DNA of 64,000 nucleotides, taken from IMG/VR virus record IMGVR_UViG_3300045772_000033, positions 1 through 64,000 of that record; one strand, given 5' to 3'. Positions 12,509 to 18,602 of this stretch are shown piece after piece; within the stretch, counting starts at the first letter, position 1; every line of letters starts with the position of its first letter. This DNA is from a virus. The notes under the pieces are model-generated. The model was not told where the DNA came from. It did not search any database and saw only the letters and a program-made list of their open reading frames with translations. The position numbers and the translations under genes were made by a program.

Positions 12509-15394
12509 ATTCCCCTCGATTTAAATCACGTTGAGAAATTCTTCCGGCGGCTCAAAATTCGTGACCGTGATGACGGGGCTTTTATCCCATTTACGCTTCG
12601 CCCGCAGCAGCAGGAAATTTTTCAACTCGCTAAGGAGCATCTAGCGCGTCGTCGGCGACTATACATCATATTCCTCAAAGCAAGGCGTTTAGGAATATCT
12701 ACGATTGCGACGGGCTTGGGGCAAGCGCACTGTATCGCTCACCCAGGCTCCATGGCGCGTTGTGTTGCGCAAAACGCTAAGGTAGCCGCTGCCAATTTCG
12801 ATATGGCCAGTAGCTTCTTTAAAGACTGCCGTGATCTTTATCCTGGCGCGCCTAAGCCCACCAAGTCAGTCTTAATATGGCCACATTCCGATGGGCACGA
12901 CTCAACCTTTGAGCATCATACAGCGGCTACCGTCCATGGCCAGCGTGGGCTCACTTCCTCGTTTCTGCACATGACTGAGGCCGCTTTCTACGAAAGGGAA
13001 GGGGTTTTTACTTCTCTGATGAACACGTTGAGTATGGATAAAAATAACATCTGCTTAGTGGAGACTACAGCTCACGGAATGGAAGGGCCGGGTGAGGCGT
13101 ACTATCAATACTGGGAAGCGGCGATGGCCGGCGACAACGAGTTTCTTCCTATTTTTCTTCCGTGGTGGGAAGATCCTGCGTACATTCTTCCTGCTGAGTT
13201 AGCTCAGGATGCCCCGCGTGACGAGTATGAAAAGTTTTTGATGAGCGGCATCAAGCATTGGAAGACAGGAAAAACAGTTTACCTCGGTAAGGATCGCATT
13301 GCCTGGTTCCGTGAAACTCTTTCGGCACGGTGCGAAGGAATCTTGGAGAAGTGGCGTGAGGAAATGCCCTCGACTCCAGAAGAAGCCTTTGTTGCTACCG
13401 GCAACCCGGCTTTCACCATCGAGGAGATGCAATTCGCGCAGAATGCCATTGTAAAAATCCCGTGGCAGGGCCGGTGTGTGCTGACCGCCGATCAAAAACA
13501 CGGCCAACTTCAAAAAGGAACAGATGGCCCGCTTGTCGTCTATGAGACCCCACAAAAAGGTCATCATTACTTCGCCGGCGTGGACTCAGCGCGCGGCGAA
13601 GAATCCACGATGGCTCCCGGCGATTATGCGGCAATAGTGGTCTGGAACGCTGAAACTGGCGACTTAGCGGCAAGGTATGTGTCGCGTGTTTCTCCGGAAG
13701 AGTTGGCCCCTGTGTCCGCCGCACTCGGATATTATTTCAACGGTGCGATGCTGAACGTTGAGCTGAACAACATCGGATACGTGACGATGAAGGCTTTGCG
13801 CGACACCTACTATTACCCCAATCAGTATCTCTGGAAAGGTCGCGATGATCGTAAGGACAGGTCAAAACAAGGCCAGGCTTACGGCTTTGAGACCAGTGAT
13901 CGCTACCGCAAGATGATGTTCTCGCTGTTTCGCACAGCGTTGCATGAAAAAAGAGTTGTGACCAAAGACAAAATCTTCGTCGATCAGATGAAGAAGGCCA
14001 AGCTGGAGATGAACTGGCGGTGGACTGTTTCGGTTGGCCACGACGATGTTTTGATGTGCCTCAATCCAAAGGAGTTAGTGGAAACTGAGGCCGGTTTTAA
14101 ACCTATAAGCGAGATTCGTTCGAGTGATCTTGTGCGGACGCACACAGGTGAAATTCATCAGGTTCAAGGTGTCATGTCTCGTGAAGTGAATGAGGAGATG
14201 GTTCACGTCGGAGTGATGGGAAATTCTGAACCTGTGCGAACGACGGGCAACCATCCTTACTACGTGTGCCGGTACGAGTGGACCCGGCTGAAGGGCACGC
14301 GTAAAGTCACCAAGAATCAAGTTGAGTTCGCATCGTGGAAAGCTGCCGTAGACTTGCGTCTAGGGGACTCGGTCCTGTTTCCAAAGCGGAAGAGCTTGCC
14401 GTCGGCCAGACTCCCCGGCGATCAGTTGTGGATTCTCGGTTGGTATTTAGCCGAGGGATCGTCTTGTCCGCGTACTCGCAAGGGGAAGATGGGCCGTGGA
14501 GTTGCGTTCAGCCTAAGTTCAGCAGAACGAGATGTGGCGAAACGGCTATGTGAAGTGTTGCTCAAATACGATCCACCTAGCCGCTCTAACCAAAAGCCTC
14601 CACGTGTTCAAGAGATAGCGGGTAAGAACGCAATTCGAGTGGTCTACTCTTCGCGCTATTGGCACGGTTTCTTTACGAAGCTCGCGGGAGGATTGCAACA
14701 GGTTCGGAAAATTCATCCCTCTGTTTACAATTGCTCCGGGCTGTTACCGCTGGCGGGAGCGTTCATGTCAGGCGATGGATCACAACCGAGGGGGCAACGC
14801 AACGCGATCCATGCGAGTAGTACCTCGCGTGTACTAATTCATCAGATCAGGCAGATATTGATCGATGAGGGAATCTGGGCCACCATCAGCAAGCCGAAGA
14901 GCCAGGACATTTGGACTCTATGCGCCTCCGCCGAGTTCATCGAGCGATTTGTTGGCATATCGAAGTTTCATTCTGTAGAGCGGAAATTTCACAAACGGCA
15001 CGTTGTTGAGACGGACGAGGGCTTCTGGGCGCCGATCAAATCTCTGGAACTGGTTCCTTACTCAGGTCCGGTGTTTAATCTCGACGTTGAGGGGGATCAT
15101 ACTTATCAGGCACAGGGAGTGGCGGTTCACAACTCAGGATTTCTCGGTTGGATCGCTTTAGAACAAAATCACCCGGCCCCTTGCCGATCCATCGCCCCCC
15201 GTAATGTCATGCTCACCAAAGAGGAGATTGAAAACGCCGGTTTCTCTCCGGTGCGCGGTCAGATGCCTGAATGGTTGCGAGATCCGAGTGTGACGGGTTC
15301 AGGGATGCTGCTGACCAGTGGGAACGATCACCTGAAGAAGCTGGAAATCTACAGTAAGAAAAAGCAGCAGCGAAACCGCCTTGAATGGGTCTAG
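12509..15394 (+). CDS. terL: terminase large subunit (intein-containing; probable ATT start)
   Basis: Walker A LKARRLGIST lies upstream of the first TTG; LHMTEAAF (Walker B), VETTAHG, FLPWW, AGVDSARG, VELNNIG, GHDDVLM. Confidence 0.9.
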   Translation: MPLDLNHVEKFFRRLKIRDRDDGAFIPFTLRPQQQEIFQLAKEHLARRRRLYIIFLKARRLGISTIATGLGQAHCIAHPGSMARCVAQNAKVAAANFDMASSFFKDCRDLYPGAPKPTKSVLIWPHSDGHDSTFEHHTAATVHGQRGLTSSFLHMTEAAFYEREGVFTSLMNTLSMDKNNICLVETTAHGMEGPGEAYYQYWEAAMAGDNEFLPIFLPWWEDPAYILPAELAQDAPRDEYEKFLMSGIKHWKTGKTVYLGKDRIAWFRETLSARCEGILEKWREEMPSTPEEAFVATGNPAFTIEEMQFAQNAIVKIPWQGRCVLTADQKHGQLQKGTDGPLVVYETPQKGHHYFAGVDSARGEESTMAPGDYAAIVVWNAETGDLAARYVSRVSPEELAPVSAALGYYFNGAMLNVELNNIGYVTMKALRDTYYYPNQYLWKGRDDRKDRSKQGQAYGFETSDRYRKMMFSLFRTALHEKRVVTKDKIFVDQMKKAKLEMNWRWTVSVGHDDVLMCLNPKELVETEAGFKPISEIRSSDLVRTHTGEIHQVQGVMSREVNEEMVHVGVMGNSEPVRTTGNHPYYVCRYEWTRLKGTRKVTKNQVEFASWKAAVDLRLGDSVLFPKRKSLPSARLPGDQLWILGWYLAEGSSCPRTRKGKMGRGVAFSLSSAERDVAKRLCEVLLKYDPPSRSNQKPPRVQEIAGKNAIRVVYSSRYWHGFFTKLAGGLQQVRKIHPSVYNCSGLLPLAGAFMSGDGSQPRGQRNAIHASSTSRVLIHQIRQILIDEGIWATISKPKSQDIWTLCASAEFIERFVGISKFHSVERKFHKRHVVETDEGFWAPIKSLELVPYSGPVFNLDVEGDHTYQAQGVAVHNSGFLGWIALEQNHPAPCRSIAPRNVMLTKEEIENAGFSPVRGQMPEWLRDPSVTGSGMLLTSGNDHLKKLEIYSKKKQQRNRLEWV
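14057..15133 (+). mobile_element. intein with LAGLIDADG homing endonuclease (359 aa)
   Basis: Starts CLNPKELV, block B TTGNHPY, LGWYLAEGS / GAFMSGDGS, ends VFNLDVEGDHTY...VHN followed by S. Confidence 0.95.
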
Positions 15395-15404
15395 GAGAGT
15401 GGAG

Positions 15405-16421
15405 ATGACCAATGATCGAGCAACAAGACCGCAAGTTAATCCTGACCTTTCCGACGCCGGACTCGGCGACGACCTTCGCAGCTTTCTTGCGTCAGATGTT
15501 CAGCCTGGCAGAGTCGTCCTTGCCGGCGGATCTGTCATCGACGACCGCGTTGAGCGGGGCACAGGCCGACAGCGCAATCTCCTCGCCACCTTCCGAGCCG
15601 TCCCTGGAGACCGTGCAGCCACCTCTGGTTTCCCCGGAACCCGAACTTTTGCCCCAGGCCGCGTTTCGCTCGCGCCACACCGTTCTGACCCCGGAGCGGC
15701 AGGATCAACTGTTCAACCAGCGGGCAGCGGGGATGTCGGCCAACCAACGCCTGCTCCGGGCTCAAACGACCTTGAGGGATGGCGTGCTGCCATTCAGCAA
15801 GCCGGGGCAGACTCCCGCGCCATCGGGCCAGCCGTCGCCGCGGCAGAGAGCGCAGACGGAGGGAGGCTTCGCGGATGGGGCGCCGAAGGCGCCCGCACTG
15901 CGGCTGGCAGTGTCGGCCAATCCCCCAGTGGGGCCAAAGGCGCTGGTCGAGGAACCGCGAAGAAGCCGGCTAAGGCCGGTCCTGCACTCCCCAAGGACAT
16001 AGCGAAGCTGATTCCTAAAGACGCTGGCGCCGCAGCTCCTCGCGTGATTGTTCCCACCCCCACGGAACGCGCCACAGCCGCCTCTCTCTTCCGCGAGATC
16101 GGAGATCGATTCAACACCAATCGGAAGAAGAGCAAGACGGCGGCCTACGCCGGCTACCGTCACGATCTGATGGCCAACCTGGACACGCTGGTCATGGGCG
16201 GCGCGCTCGATCTGAAGGATGCGACCACGATCATCACCAACCTGGAGCAGTACACCAAGGAGACCGAGGCGGAATCGACTGAGACCCCGGCGACGATCCT
16301 GGGCCGCTGGCTCAGGATGAGCGCGGAGGAGGTGGCCGGGTTGGAAGCTCCTGTGGAAGAAGTTGTGGAAGATGAGGAAAAAGTCGAGGAGGAAGAAGAG
16401 TTAGCTGAAGAGATCAACTAA
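15405..16421 (+). CDS. hypothetical protein with acidic C-terminus (start uncertain)
   Basis: AGGAG-7nt-ATG; the C-terminal part has clear coding bias. Confidence 0.55.
   Translation: MTNDRATRPQVNPDLSDAGLGDDLRSFLASDVQPGRVVLAGGSVIDDRVERGTGRQRNLLATFRAVPGDRAATSGFPGTRTFAPGRVSLAPHRSDPGAAGSTVQPAGSGDVGQPTPAPGSNDLEGWRAAIQQAGADSRAIGPAVAAAESADGGRLRGWGAEGARTAAGSVGQSPSGAKGAGRGTAKKPAKAGPALPKDIAKLIPKDAGAAAPRVIVPTPTERATAASLFREIGDRFNTNRKKSKTAAYAGYRHDLMANLDTLVMGGALDLKDATTIITNLEQYTKETEAESTETPATILGRWLRMSAEEVAGLEAPVEEVVEDEEKVEEEEELAEEIN
15412..16002 (+). CDS. hypothetical protein nested in a different frame of the previous ORF
   Basis: GGAG-7nt-ATG, GC3-rich codons. Confidence 0.6.
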   Translation: MIEQQDRKLILTFPTPDSATTFAAFLRQMFSLAESSLPADLSSTTALSGAQADSAISSPPSEPSLETVQPPLVSPEPELLPQAAFRSRHTVLTPERQDQLFNQRAAGMSANQRLLRAQTTLRDGVLPFSKPGQTPAPSGQPSPRQRAQTEGGFADGAPKAPALRLAVSANPPVGPKALVEEPRRSRLRPVLHSPRT

Positions 16422-18593
16422 CTGAATCCTCTTTCCAATCCAGGTCATGCAAGGAACAGCCATCGAATTTCCTAACGATTTATAAACTGGGCCGTCGGCC
16501 GGGGGCTTGCCGTTGATTCGGATCTGGCTGAAGTAGTTGTCTGGAAATCCTTGTAACCGGCAGCATTCAAGCTAAAGCGGGGTCAGCCGACGGACTTGCA
16601 TGGCTGACCCCTGACCTCCGATCACAGAAGTTTTCCTCGGCGTTTCTGCATCGCGTGTTTGCTGCAGTAGCCGTTTGCATGGTACTTCAAGTTGCAATTC
16701 TGGATTACGCATGTCCTTTGTGGATTCGATTCTGTTTCTTTCCTCGCAGTGACAAATTGATTGTCCTTGAGGATCAACGGATCGCCCCACTTCTTGAAGC
16801 GTTGATAGTGCTTGTCGCAGTATCCCAAGCCCTTCTGAGGCTGTCCACAGACTATACAAAAACGTGAATTGTGATGTCCTTTCATGTGGCAACTTCGACA
16901 AAGTCGTTCCAAGTTCTCTGAATTGTTGTTCTGCCAGTTTTCGTCTTTGTGGTGAACATCCACATTTTCTGAAGACCCACAGCGCGCGCAAGGTCCAGGA
17001 GGGCAAATTTTTCTCGCTCTGCGATGCGAGGCCATCCAGCCTACTTTTGTTAGTTTCGGCTTGGCCTCGGTCGCTTTTCCAAAACATATCAGATTGCAGT
17101 ATTTCTTCTTGCCGAATGAGGTTAAGCATTCCAAGTCCCCATTCAGAGAACGACGTCTCTCCAACTTCTTTCCGCAGGATTCGCAGAATTTCAGTGGAGT
17201 CGGTTTTAAGTGTGCGCTCATTGAAACCATCATAATCCAAGGTATCAAGCAATGCAACCCGCGCTGGTTGTGATTCGCCTTCGCGCCCACGGAGGTTGAA
17301 GGCTACTGCCTGCGGCACCTGTCGCGCTTCGACTGTGTATGCCTGGTCGTCGGTTCTGATTCCCACGCCATCGGGACCGGCCAGCGGATTCTCGCAGATG
17401 GCGCGCTCCTGAATGGCGATTGCCACGCACTGCGGTTGCCCTCCTCCAGTTGGGGATTGCTTGGCGATTGTGAGCGCGCAATTGGCATTGAATTTTGGTG
17501 TTTGCTCTGTCGTGAATGCCACTGCCACCTGCCCGCCGGCATTTGCGTGGCTGCCGGAGAAGTTCATCGAGCGCAGGGTCGGGGAAATTTCTCCGGAGTC
17601 GAGGCCTGAGTCTTTGCAGGAGAAAGCGATTGCGTGAACGTCATGCCCGTGCATCGCGTTCAGTGTGAAGCTAGGCCCATCTTCCTGAGCGACGCTGTTG
17701 CCCTTGCTGCCCTGCATATTTAGCATGGCCACCGGCACCAGCGGCGTCCCAATTGGCTGTGCCTCTTCTGCTTCGTTCCAGTATCCTCTACCCGAAGCGA
17801 CGAAAGTCTCGCTCTCGAAGTCCAGCCGTCCGTTTGGACCGCCATGCGCGTTGCAGGCCGTGGCTACGTCAATAGGTCCGCTAGTGTTGTTGCCGCCGAA
17901 GCCGGTGGGGACAAGGCAGTCCTGGTCGCGGGTGTCGCCGGGTCGGTCGAAGCCTCGGCCACTTGCTCCAATGCAAGGCGCAAGGTCATAGGTAGGGCTT
18001 TCCCTCTTTTCTCGGCTCGGCGGAGTATCCCCCGACAGGCTTTGGCGCTCAAATAGAACCGCTGCGGCACGGCGCCAGTCTCCAAGATGTCCGACAAGGA
18101 AGACGCGACGGCGGCGCTGTGGAACTCCAGCGTATTGAGCGTCACAAACGCGATAGGCGAACCCATACCCGATTTCCCCCAACGCCCCGATGAAGGCTCC
18201 AAACGTCCGTCCTCCATCAATTGACAGGACACCGGGGACGTTCTCCCAGACCAGCCATCGGGTCCGTAAGCGTTCAGCAAGTCGAGCGAATTCAAGGGTG
18301 AGGTTGCCACGAGGGTCAGCCAGTCCAGCTCGGAGACCGGCGACGGAGAAACTCTGGCAGGGGGTTCCGCCAACGAGGATGTCGGGGCGGCAGGGGAGAT
18401 CGTCGAGCGTGATTTTCGTGAAGTCGCCATAGTTCTTTACTCCTGGGTAATGATGAGCGAGGACTGCGGAAGGAAATTTGTCGATTTCGGCAAAGCCAAC
18501 AGGTTGCCAGCCGAGCGGCCCCCAGGCAACCGAAGCTGCTTCGATTCCAGAGCAAATTGACAAGTAGGTTAGTGGATGGAAGCCTTCTGGCAT
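16401..18593 (-). CDS. C5-cytosine DNA methyltransferase, interrupted by an in-frame TAG at 16572-16574
   Basis: CSGIE (motif I), GGTPCQSFS (IV), WENVPG (VI), QRRRRVF (VIII); motifs IX/X RRLTPL*LECCRLQGFPD...YKSLGNSMAVP continue in frame after the stop. Confidence 0.85.
16622..17221 (-). CDS. HNH endonuclease nested in an alternative frame inside the MTase
   Basis: CARCG...DVHHKDENWQNNNSENLERLCRSCH plus Zn fingers; own promoter TTGCAT-17-TATGAT 7 nt before the ATG. Confidence 0.85.
   Translation of the reverse strand: MSAHLKPTPLKFCESCGKKLERRRSLNGDLECLTSFGKKKYCNLICFGKATEAKPKLTKVGWMASHRRARKICPPGPCARCGSSENVDVHHKDENWQNNNSENLERLCRSCHMKGHHNSRFCIVCGQPQKGLGYCDKHYQRFKKWGDPLILKDNQFVTARKETESNPQRTCVIQNCNLKYHANGYCSKHAMQKRRGKLL
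17864..18430 (-). CDS. alternative-frame ORF resembling the M.EcoHK31I beta polypeptide
   Basis: SSGRWGKSGM...SLSDILET...FYLSAKAC.GILRRAEKRGK.LP..L..AL. Confidence 0.65.
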   Translation of the reverse strand: MATSRKSRSTISPAAPTSSLAEPPARVSPSPVSELDWLTLVATSPLNSLDLLNAYGPDGWSGRTSPVSCQLMEDGRLEPSSGRWGKSGMGSPIAFVTLNTLEFHSAAVASSLSDILETGAVPQRFYLSAKACRGILRRAEKRGKALPMTLRLALEQVAEASTDPATPATRTALSPPASAATTLADLLT

Positions 18594-18602
18594 AATGCTC
18601 AA

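Follow-up and report, generated by a model that had tools for sequence, protein, structure and literature searches.

The TAG codon that interrupts motif IX of a viral C5 DNA methyltransferase (MTase) gene is rather probably part of a conserved recoding module. By a hairpin-driven hop of the ribosome, the nine nucleotides CUU-UAG-CUU would be translated into one leucine. This reading was deduced from sequences, without protein data. The insert is real, and conservation of the stop, of the matched codons and of the hairpin, selection on the segment after the stop and linkage of the module to an HNH gene were all observed. The window, i.e. the whole stretch of DNA analysed, has a length of 64,000 nucleotides; in the 77.9-kb genome no second site of this kind was found. 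At the site the following features were assigned:

16575..18602, minus strand: C5 DNA methyltransferase, first segment, an ORF of 676 aa (PF00145, E 3.7e-40)
16575..16577, minus strand: proposed take-off codon CTT (Leu); CTT or CTC in all 20 Leu-type representatives
16572..16574, minus strand: in-frame stop TAG, over which the hop is proposed; 21 of ~25 lineages have a stop as middle codon
16569..16571, minus strand: proposed landing codon CTT (Leu), followed by GAA TGC; always CTN, never TTR
16401..16568, minus strand: C5 methyltransferase, second segment, with the remainder of motif IX (ECCRLQGFPD), motif X (GNSMAVP) and the stop TAA (16403-16401)

The MTase frame on the minus strand reads ...MQVRRLTPL*LECCRLQGFPD...YKSLGNSMAVP... 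until this TAA, and matching CTT codons stand directly on either side of the in-frame stop. Thus, the CTT-TAG-CTT behind a perfect 10-bp hairpin in motif IX, described in the first-pass annotation, was seen as reported there. The first segment comprises motifs I-VIII, the target-recognition region, about 200 codons across an HNH cassette and the first part of motif IX (...VRRLTPL). Its start codon is likely ATG 18593, judged from the near-identical relative P0046, which begins with MPEGFHP. The Pfam profile of C-5 cytosine DNA methyltransferases (PF00145) matches on both sides of the stop, with the N-terminal catalytic motifs (residues 12-176, E 3.7e-40) and with the C-terminal motifs IX-X (56 aa after the stop, E 3.1e-6). 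At least 75 related viral MTases all have VRRLTPxECxRLQGFPD, with one-residue spacing and without the two extra codons. Reassignment of TAG or a suppressor tRNA was rejected: the sole tRNA is a tRNA-Lys(CUU), TAG terminates 19 of 69 long ORFs and relatives use TGA or TAA at the site. An RF2-type +1 frameshift was rejected as well; motifs IX-X continue in frame 0.

The contigs spanning the insert come from independent peat and lake studies. Contig X3, from an independent study, covers 16244-18102 with no change listed at the insert site, and contig X5 (16378-16652) showed 0 differences. The lake variant X12 (16230-16696) had 0 gaps and 10 differences in 467 nt, the letters at the TAG not being displayed. 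With 0 differences, contig X16 from an RNA library (16476-16626) retains the 6 nt as well. Hence, the 6 nt are kept in independent metagenome assemblies and in one RNA-library contig, and the assembly artefact that the first-pass annotation had left as an alternative is refuted.

Viral contigs were scanned with a pattern allowing three unconstrained codons between LTP and EC. A two-codon insert at exactly this site was found in 35 contigs of about 25 lineages: 19 with Leu-stop-Leu, one with GTT TAG GTT, one with GTT TAG GAT and four with Arg-sense-Arg. A Leu-sense-Leu allele was not met among these 35 contigs. All three stops, TGA, TAG and TAA, are used as middle codon. The flanking codons match in 23 of 25 lineages, being Leu/Leu (CTY/CTN), Val/Val (GTT/GTT) or Arg/Arg (CGA/CGA or CGC); those of lineage L102 (GTT TAG GAT) are unmatched. 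The four lineages with a sense codon in the middle have CGA CAA CGA or CGA TTA CGA/CGC, i.e. the minority codon CGA as flank in 4/4 lineages and CAA or the rare TTA between. The base after the stop is C in Leu alleles and G in Val alleles. Every gap found is in frame, +6 apart from a single +9 variant in L119 (CTC TGA GGA CTT), again with Leu codons at both ends. The search for NNN-stop-NNN in homologous MTases, suggested by the first-pass annotation, was positive.

The choice of codons is narrow. The restriction of the take-off codon in the Leu-type representatives has P ~1e-11 against each gene's own Leu codon usage, that of the landing codon P ~1e-5. For the RRLTP leucine, these genes use all six codons. 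Since the lineages are only partly independent, these P-values are upper estimates of significance. The closest relatives, P0001/L083 (the contig of P0001 is L083, recovered by the pattern scan), P0046 and L097, carry the stop, L097 with TGA at the position of the TAG of the window. The finding that all close relatives were uninterrupted would have refuted the first-pass proposal; it was not made.

The segment after the stop is under strong purifying selection, with an omega of 0.08-0.24 or saturated dS, in line with the dN/dS comparison proposed for this segment by the earlier annotation. Between the window and L097 omega was 0.10; between the window and L083 dS was saturated at 80% amino acid identity. 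A dead or dying gene, carrying an inactivating 6-bp insertion and possibly a repair scar of the HNH nuclease, could not be excluded from the window alone, and L102 with its unmatched flanks may be such a case. However, the same type of insert occurs in about 25 lineages, omega downstream is far below 1, the stop switches among TGA, TAG and TAA but is never sense in Leu alleles, and a co-evolving hairpin is specific to the insert alleles. The inactivating insertion, another alternative of the first-pass annotation, was refuted in this way, and for gene decay in general only the slightest chance is left.

Upstream of the take-off codon two further features were identified:

16579..16611, minus strand: hairpin with 5' arm GGGGTCAGCC (16611-16602), 13-nt loop (16601-16589) and 3' arm GGCTGACCCC (16588-16579)
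16615..16619, minus strand: Shine-Dalgarno-like GGAGG, shortly behind the HNH stop, with 3 nt between it and the 5' end of the hairpin

The hairpin has 10 perfect base pairs, and a single G (16578) separates its 3' arm from the take-off codon. This arm consists of the last bases of an Arg codon and of the Leu-Thr-Pro codons of motif IX. In the window the folding energy was -25.7 kcal/mol (z = -2.7 versus shuffles). A hairpin was present in 29/29 unique insert-bearing sequences and in 0/54 uninterrupted relatives; the median fold of the region was -20.1 versus -8.8 kcal/mol (p = 1e-8). In insert-bearing alleles the distance from its end to the take-off codon is 0-2 nt, mostly 0-1 nt. As the arms were left unaligned by MAFFT, the take-off codon was used to anchor the alignment for counting covariation. 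Compensatory changes were found at synonymous positions, namely the third bases of the Leu and Thr codons (GC12/TA10/AT3/CG3/GT1 and CG20/AT5/TA2/GC1). Additional structure 3' of the stop was not detected: the 60 nt downstream fold no better than those of uninterrupted relatives (p = 0.77). A stimulator would thus be on the 5' side, the side favouring forward slippage. The upstream peptide VRRLTPL is motif IX of the MTase itself, hence its conservation cannot be assigned to a nascent-peptide signal.

Programmed readthrough of the stop has to be weighed against the hop. A near-cognate tRNA would fill the stop, and the MTase would gain two residues (LTP-L-X-L-EC) where the motif IX helix begins. 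Since all inserts are in frame, frame alone cannot exclude this. The stop is usually UGA and usually followed by C, a weak termination context and the leakiest one (PMC5009743). Moreover, ordinary decoding must give a protein with two additional residues in the four lineages where the middle codon is sense (R-Q-R, R-L-R), so that such a protein may be tolerated. But the CGA flanks around CAA or the rare TTA in these alleles look like a hop over a slow codon. Readthrough also gives no reason for matched flanks in Leu, Val and Arg alleles alike, and leaves the CUY-only take-off and UUR-free landing in low-GC phages unexplained. Known readthrough stimulators are located 3' of the stop, whereas the conserved structure here is 5' and nothing special was found 3'. 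Finally, Leu-sense-Leu alleles are missing, though a sense codon would raise the yield. We regard readthrough as unlikely, but it remains the rival to be taken seriously.

An enzyme of two chains, or a re-initiated one, was also considered. The gene would end at the stop, and the piece with motifs IX-X would be separate, as with M.AquI and M.EcoHK31I, or be made by termination-reinitiation. In those two enzymes the coding sequence of the C5-MTase is broken before motifs IX-X, too. The GGAGG upstream of the hairpin, with similar sequences 2-5 nt 5' of it in most lineages, and an ATG in the hairpin loop of some lineages fit such a start. However, the second gene of M.AquI and M.EcoHK31I has its own start, while here none follows the stop: between stop and motif X no ATG, GTG or TTG occurs in frame, motif X itself contains the next in-frame ATG, and the stop is directly followed by CTN. 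A chain started at the loop ATG, which many lineages lack, must still pass the stop. The break is inside motif IX, not between domains. A two-chain or re-initiated enzyme is thus highly improbable.

The HNH gene named above ends shortly before the hairpin:

16622..17233, minus strand: HNH homing-endonuclease ORF, 199-203 aa (ATG 17233 or 17221, TGA 16624-16622), with HNH motif and weak PF13392 match

This ORF overlaps the MTase gene in its +1 frame (overprinting), and the MTase frame is free of stops throughout the overlap. When the HNH ORF of the window was shuffled synonymously, the MTase frame stayed open in 0/500 cases; the third frame has 13 stops. At 18 other loci, too, an HNH ORF with 42-84% identity is found in the +1 frame. 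The gene was found directly upstream in 15/24 insert-bearing lineages versus 4/77 uninterrupted ones (Fisher p = 1e-8), with 26-80 nt between its end and the take-off codon. In the alleles of L087, L114 and P0046 only the module is present and the HNH gene is absent; this is compatible with a resistant allele outliving the nuclease gene, the target of which has not been shown. By analogy with T4 mobA/gene 60, we infer that the 6-nt insert, placed where the DNA of the gene is most conserved, probably shields its carrier from the HNH nuclease without cost for the protein. The neighbouring HNH gene, a main part of the story, had not been linked to the site in the first-pass annotation.

It could also be supposed that the 6 nt have been eliminated or made harmless by the time of translation, through processing or editing of the RNA or through a reversible DNA deletion between the 3-nt repeats, or that the hairpin is a nuclease signal in DNA unrelated to decoding. 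Direct repeats flank the stop, and inverted repeats can act in DNA. In contrast, the RNA-library contig and all DNA contigs retain the 6 nt, though contigs hide rare variants. A group I intron or other RNA family was not found around the HNH gene, i.e. there was no Rfam match and no intron-like element, and the hairpin is retained in alleles without the HNH gene. In the arm pairs G:U exceeds A:C mismatches, but only by 14 to 6, and the hairpin could still act at the DNA level. Altogether we attach hardly any weight to removal before translation or to a mere DNA signal.

A programmed +6 stop-hop remains the favoured reading: with a stop kept in about 20 distantly related phage lineages between mostly matched codons, after a co-evolving hairpin, it is most likely that ribosomes hop. 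On arrival of the ribosome at the stop, peptidyl-tRNA-Leu would be paired with CUU in the P site, and termination would be slow. Codon-anticodon pairing would be released, the mRNA would shift by 6 nt and the same tRNA would pair again with the second CUU. With decoding restarted at GAA, motif IX would have its canonical form, RRLTPLECCRLQGFPD, and the MTase its full length. As driver we infer the conserved G+C-rich hairpin. Its 3' arm, the Leu-Thr-Pro codons, would occupy the E site and the exit channel; for the stem to close, the mRNA would have to be pulled out of the ribosome, and the zippering of the stem would push the ribosome forward. This driving role is an inference, because the ribosome covers the 3' arm at take-off, which is not the case with the 5' stem-loop of gene 60. 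The module would travel with, and outlive, an HNH cassette that is translated through in the second frame.

In E. coli constructs, stop-hops between matched codons on either side of a stop are functional (Weiss, Dunn, Atkins and Gesteland 1987; O'Connor et al. 1989; reviewed in PMC5009743), and according to this review no natural in-frame stop hopping is known, only synthetic constructs. Both have matched codons around the stop and Leu CUU beside UAG; in our module, too, 9 nt would stand for one amino acid, and the hop product would differ from the readthrough product by two residues. The synthetic sites were engineered, of low efficiency and without stimulator, whereas the present module is natural, found in about 20 lineages and equipped with a covarying 5' hairpin.

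The T4 gene 39/mobA/gene 60 element combines an HNH homing endonuclease with a 50-nt translational bypass (Bonocora 2011; bioRxiv 10.1101/2022.08.31.505936). Take-off and landing codons are matched there as well, the stop comes immediately after the take-off codon, mRNA structure is involved, as inferred for our module, and the element is positioned just 3' of an HNH gene in a conserved host gene, with protection of the host gene as presumed role. In contrast, the gap of our module is 3 nt (6 nt in one variant) and in frame instead of 20-50 nt, it contains no stem-loop, and the MTase is not split but its frame runs through the HNH gene in another frame. A relation of the HNH proteins to MobA has not been shown. 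Bypassing in gene 60 is driven by pairing of the exiting mRNA (PMC5009743; bioRxiv 10.1101/2024.12.09.627546, 10.1101/2022.08.31.505936). The supposed role of the hairpin on the exit side resembles the one proposed for this pairing and also the tension of the SD duplex at the CUU-UGA-C site of RF2.

The +1 programmed frameshift of RF2 (prfB) takes place at CUU UGA C, preceded by an SD (PMC5009743). Most often, the module has this core CUU-UGA-C as well, with tRNA-Leu on CUU in the P site, a slow stop and a 5' helix near the P site, thought to push the mRNA forward. But the downstream frame is 0, not +1, and the helix is an intramolecular hairpin instead of an SD:anti-SD duplex. The GGAGG of the window is too far from the take-off codon (~38 nt) for a prfB-like action.

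Other gap lengths were investigated in the viral contigs. Inserts of +1 to +5 nt, +3 included, were not detected. With +7 to +26 nt there were 49 hits, all of them chance occurrences of ACCCC upstream of normal genes, and with +9 one case, L119. The two variable-gap scans (+1 to +5 and +7 to +26 nt) required ACC CCN for Thr-Pro, so other Thr-Pro codons were missed. A gap of tens of nucleotides with a take-off stem-loop, as in gene 60, was not met; the gap was 3 nt (6 nt in L119). In a genome collection of 185,579 species the first pattern had 0 hits and a looser one 4 chance hits, none in an MTase, and no prophage example or named host was obtained there. When the read-through C-terminus was compared with cultured phages by tblastn, the best hits were too short for the insert, or uninterrupted in the two cases inspected (Faecalibacterium phage FP_Toutatis and an uncultured human-fecal phage scaffold). 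The cultured-phage collection could not be scanned by pattern, hence absence there is not shown.

The CUU-UAG-CUU stop-hop with adjacent hairpin proposed in the first-pass annotation is supported, since each prediction of a hop at the sequence level is fulfilled in the relatives, namely matched flanks, CUY take-off, a stop kept as TGA, TAG or TAA, a covarying 5' hairpin and a +9 variant landing on CUU. The product has not been shown and readthrough is not excluded. The efficiency of expression is unknown, so the low-level expression assumed there is unproven. In a wider reading, which we believe and doubt about equally, the sites are the first natural family of programmed stop-hops. Driven by hairpin zippering, they would be spreading among phage cytosine-methylase genes as self-protection of an HNH cassette that is neither intron nor intein, and Arg-UUA-Arg and Arg-CAA-Arg would be hops over slow sense codons.

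To our knowledge, very few natural systems use translational bypassing, namely T4 gene 60 with its relatives and the yeast mitochondrial 'byps'. In the best reading, the module is a natural stop-hop of a type so far shown in engineered constructs only, and a short counterpart of the T4 mobA/gene 60 cassette. With about 45 nt, its conservation and a clear covarying candidate for the stimulator, it would be a minimal natural system for the study of hopping: the release of peptidyl-tRNA, the distance over which the mRNA slides and the contribution of a helix on the exit side could be examined. Annotators should not dismiss a gene as a pseudogene when it is 'truncated' at X-stop-X behind a hairpin, and many phage MTases annotated as one long protein also hide an HNH gene in a second frame. 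If the reading is true, homing endonucleases repeatedly recruit recoding to hide the disruption of their target sites in essential motifs.

The perfect hairpin directly ahead of CTT-TAG-CTT in the MTase frame, described in the first-pass annotation, was seen on the minus strand:

16611 down to 16563, minus strand: GGGGTCAGCC, a 13-nt loop, GGCTGACCCC, G, then CTT TAG CTT GAA TGC

Around the stop the MTase frame is translated as ...GGQGSAMQVRRLTPL, stop, LECCRLQGFPDNYFSQIRINGKPPADGPVYKSLGNSMAVPCMTWIGKRIQLVDLFS, stop. Two separate matches to PF00145 (C-5 cytosine methylase, Pfam) fall in the 676-aa ORF before the stop and in the 56-aa piece behind it. The motif VRRLTPxECxRLQGFPD occurs in at least 75 related viral MTases, and its spacing in these relatives shows that the window carries exactly two extra codons. 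The virus record is a 77.9-kb IMG/VR contig with 57% G+C, and the phage is present in peat, permafrost and lake metagenomes (~14 studies). The site is covered by four contigs matching the same phage, all retaining the 6 nt:

X3, 16244-18102: independent study, no change listed at the site
X5, 16378-16652: identical to the window
X12, 16230-16696: 10 substitutions, gap-free
X16, 16476-16626: RNA library, identical to the window

Thus, the insert is real and its removal from RNA is not visible. An assembly artefact, considered in the first-pass annotation, is contradicted by these contigs. Removal of the insert at the RNA or DNA level is likewise contradicted, by the 6 nt in the RNA library (X16) and in X3, X5 and X12. 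Rare variants can hide in contigs, and an RNA library may contain DNA. Code reassignment does not agree with the data either: TAG terminates 19 of the 69 long ORFs of the record, hence the standard genetic code is used, and the sole tRNA is tRNA-Lys(CUU).

The nearest proteins in a collection of 5.8 billion, P0001 and P0046, both terminate after ...RRLTPL. P0001 shows 60% identity across the last 247 aa; P0046 has an N-terminus near-identical to that of the window's MTase, and a different insert content. Scanning with the pattern L-T-P, three unconstrained codons, E-C-x-R-L-Q-G-F yielded 4 viral and 30 metagenome contigs (35 with the window). Lineages were defined by clustering 55 post-insert aa at 80% identity, which gave 24 clusters and one contig too short to cluster. 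The NNN-stop-NNN arrangement that the first-pass annotation proposed to look for in homologous MTases was found, as Leu-stop-Leu and as GTT TAG GTT:

Leu-stop-Leu, 19 lineages: TGA is commonest, TAG and TAA also occur
GTT TAG GTT, 1 lineage
GTT TAG GAT, 1 lineage: the outlier L102
Arg-sense-Arg, 4 lineages: CGA CAA CGA; CGA TTA CGA or CGC

No Leu-sense-Leu lineage appeared among the 35 contigs of this unconstrained-codon scan. Uninterrupted motifs in all close relatives would have refuted the proposal, but two members of the window's clade share the stop site, L083 with the same CTT TAG CTT as the window and L097 with CTT TGA CTT. The post-stop segment is intact in every insert-bearing sequence. 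Its dN/dS, also proposed as a check, indicates strong constraint: omega was 0.08-0.24 where dS could be estimated, and in many pairs dS was saturated while amino-acid identity was still 60-89%. A pseudogene, or the inactivating insertion named as an alternative in the first-pass annotation, is contradicted by this constrained, intact segment and by the stops conserved across lineages. A stop preceding a selected ORF and outlasting the saturation of synonymous sites is, on this comparison, to be read as a recoding signal and not as a lesion. We regard a conserved recoding site as very probable, although all evidence for it is comparative. A +1 frameshift and a separate second chain were both contradicted by the data.

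The type of recoding was inferred from the codons around the stop. In a +6 stop-hop, 9 nt would be decoded as one Leu; readthrough would add two residues. The codon before the stop is only CTT or CTC in 20/20 Leu-type representatives (P ~1e-11 against each gene's own Leu usage), and the codon behind it is only CTN, never TTR, in the same 20 (P ~1e-5). Three codons earlier in these genes, the Leu of RRLTP is encoded by all six Leu codons. The P-values overstate independence because the lineages share ancestry, yet elsewhere the genes are saturated at their synonymous sites. CGA, which makes up only 10-19% of the Arg codons in the respective contigs, is the take-off codon in 4/4 Arg-type lineages; the middle codon of these alleles is TTA (1.5-4% of Leu codons in the contigs) or CAA. 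Matched flanks in three amino-acid classes together with the codon restriction are what re-pairing of the P-site tRNA would predict; selection on the protein would predict neither. The alleles with a sense middle codon are found in:

L084, L085/L115/L116, L095 and L113: high-GC contigs with the same hairpin module

CAA and TTA are one mutation away from TAA. These modules may hop over a slow codon or may have reverted to ordinary decoding. Readthrough remains possible, since every gap is in frame, C usually follows the stop, and the four Arg-sense-Arg lineages imply a viable enzyme with two more residues, unless those alleles hop too. However, it leaves the matched flanks, the restriction to CUY and the absence of Leu-sense-Leu alleles unexplained.

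In 29/29 unique insert-bearing sequences a hairpin was detected in the 40 nt that precede the take-off codon, with a median stem of 9 bp and a median loop of 14 nt. Its 3' arm, made up of the last Arg base and the Leu-Thr-Pro codons, stops 0-2 nt short of the take-off codon (0-1 nt in 27/29). The 40-nt stretch folded at a median of -20.1 kcal/mol, compared with -8.8 in 54 uninterrupted relatives (Mann-Whitney p = 1e-8); the window's hairpin has a folding energy of -25.7 kcal/mol (z = -2.7). No excess of structure was measured in the 60 nt downstream (medians -11.7 and -12.3 kcal/mol, respectively; p = 0.77), and this structure on the 5' side only is a further point that readthrough does not explain. 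Synonymous changes in the 3' arm are matched by compensating changes in the 5' arm. At the third position of the Leu codon the pairs number GC12/TA10/AT3/CG3/GT1, and at that of the Thr codon CG20/AT5/TA2/GC1. A 5' arm fits the 3' arm of its own sequence at 7.5/8 positions, versus 5.3/8 for arms taken from other sequences. The 14 G:U pairs against 6 A:C mismatches weakly favour the sense RNA as the putative acting strand. An Rfam search gave no family match. In most module-bearing loci a conserved GGAGG-like sequence is located 2-5 nt from the hairpin on its 5' side (16615-16619 in the window), and some lineages have an in-frame ATG within the loop.

Recoding by a hop is the reading we lean towards, with reservation: only comparative evidence is available, and product and yield are unknown. 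When CUU occupies the P site and the stop the A site, the G+C-rich base of the hairpin (CCCC:GGGG) would lie in the E site and exit channel, unable to close. Its closure would pull the mRNA about two codons forward, tRNA-Leu would re-pair with the next CUN, and decoding would resume with RRLTPLECCRLQGFPD restored. A single +9 variant, CTC TGA GGA CTT, was found in L119 (9004-9047, plus strand), a close relative of L104 (CTC TGA CTT); the extra GGA creates an SD-like GAGGA just before the landing codon. For this variant a hop, predicted to leave the product unchanged, fits better than readthrough with three added residues. Stop-hops with matched codons around the stop have been described for E. 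coli constructs, and a natural case is unknown (PMC5009743). RF2 genes contain CUU UGA C, where C weakens termination and a nearby 5' helix stimulates forward slippage (PMC5009743). For T4 gene 60, pairing of the mRNA exiting the ribosome was proposed to drive forward bypassing (bioRxiv 10.1101/2024.12.09.627546). In the literature covered, which does not include all journals, no report was found of C5-MTases with a motif IX stop, nor of a natural stop-hop. The module was not found in a cultivated phage or named host by a pattern scan of 185,579 species or by tblastn of cultured phages, which were not pattern-scanned.

HNH homing-endonuclease ORFs are overprinted on the MTase gene, in the window upstream of the module:

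16622-17233, minus strand: HNH ORF, read in frame +1 relative to the MTase (cassette region 16622-17290)
L001 3007-3489; L009, L037, L041, L060, L083, L088-L090, L094, L095, L100-L102, L109, L112: other +1-frame HNH cassettes

In the window the MTase frame is stop-free over the 199 codons of the HNH ORF. The same overlap is present in gp45 of Staphylococcus phage CUB-EPI_14, annotated in GenBank as one 601-aa methyltransferase; compared with the window, its HNH frame is 49% and its MTase frame 34% identical. The MTase frame is open in 18/19 cassettes. After synonymous shuffling of the HNH ORF it stayed open in only 0-5% of the trials, and the third frame holds 3-13 stops. The cassette is located before motif IX in most loci, but L041 and L060 carry it between motifs IX and X; two different sites indicate that it is mobile. 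From these comparisons it appears to be a mobile nuclease, neither intron nor intein, that is translated through. The distance from the end of the HNH ORF to the take-off codon is 26-80 nt, with the ORF invariably in frame +1, in 15/24 insert-bearing lineages versus 4/77 uninterrupted relatives (Fisher p = 1e-8). The stop and hairpin are kept where the HNH gene is absent or a decayed remnant (L087, L114, L093, L084, L113, L105, P0046). Hence, the hairpin does not serve HNH expression.

The MTase gene is a hotspot for nuclease insertions. P0046, a 670-aa ENA metagenome protein ending at the RRLTPL stop, lacks the +1-frame cassette except for its last ~15 codons after a QQ junction, and has an in-frame NUMOD4/HNH_3 nuclease domain fused within the target-recognition region. 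L099 carries a different nuclease-like ORF (~500-1280, +2 frame) and two MTase-frame stops just upstream of the module; here a separate gene may encode the C-terminal part. The otherwise near-identical X3 differs from the window by a substitution cluster and 6 extra nt, in frame, at 17272-17288, shortly before the HNH start and at the cassette's 5' border, which suggests alternative junctions in the population. L086 apparently has two tandem cassette copies. In the low-GC loci L086, L090, L096, L100 and L103 the MTase C-terminus continues into a second MTase N-terminus (LFDGIGGF). The large terminase subunit of the window (892 aa, 12716-15394, plus strand) contains an intein-like insert that spans roughly residues 454-806 and includes a LAGLIDADG domain (PF14528, E 2e-7; matches to Intein_splicing and HINT fall short of the curated cut-offs), which would give this phage a second selfish element.

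The bypass of T4 gene 60 belongs to the mobile MobA HNH element and is presumed to guard against the MobA nuclease (PMC5009743; bioRxiv 10.1101/2022.08.31.505936). The window's module resembles it in adjoining an HNH gene. The position of the insert, within the gene's most conserved DNA and beside a homing nuclease, suggests by analogy with T4 that the insert may protect the putative target site of the nuclease.
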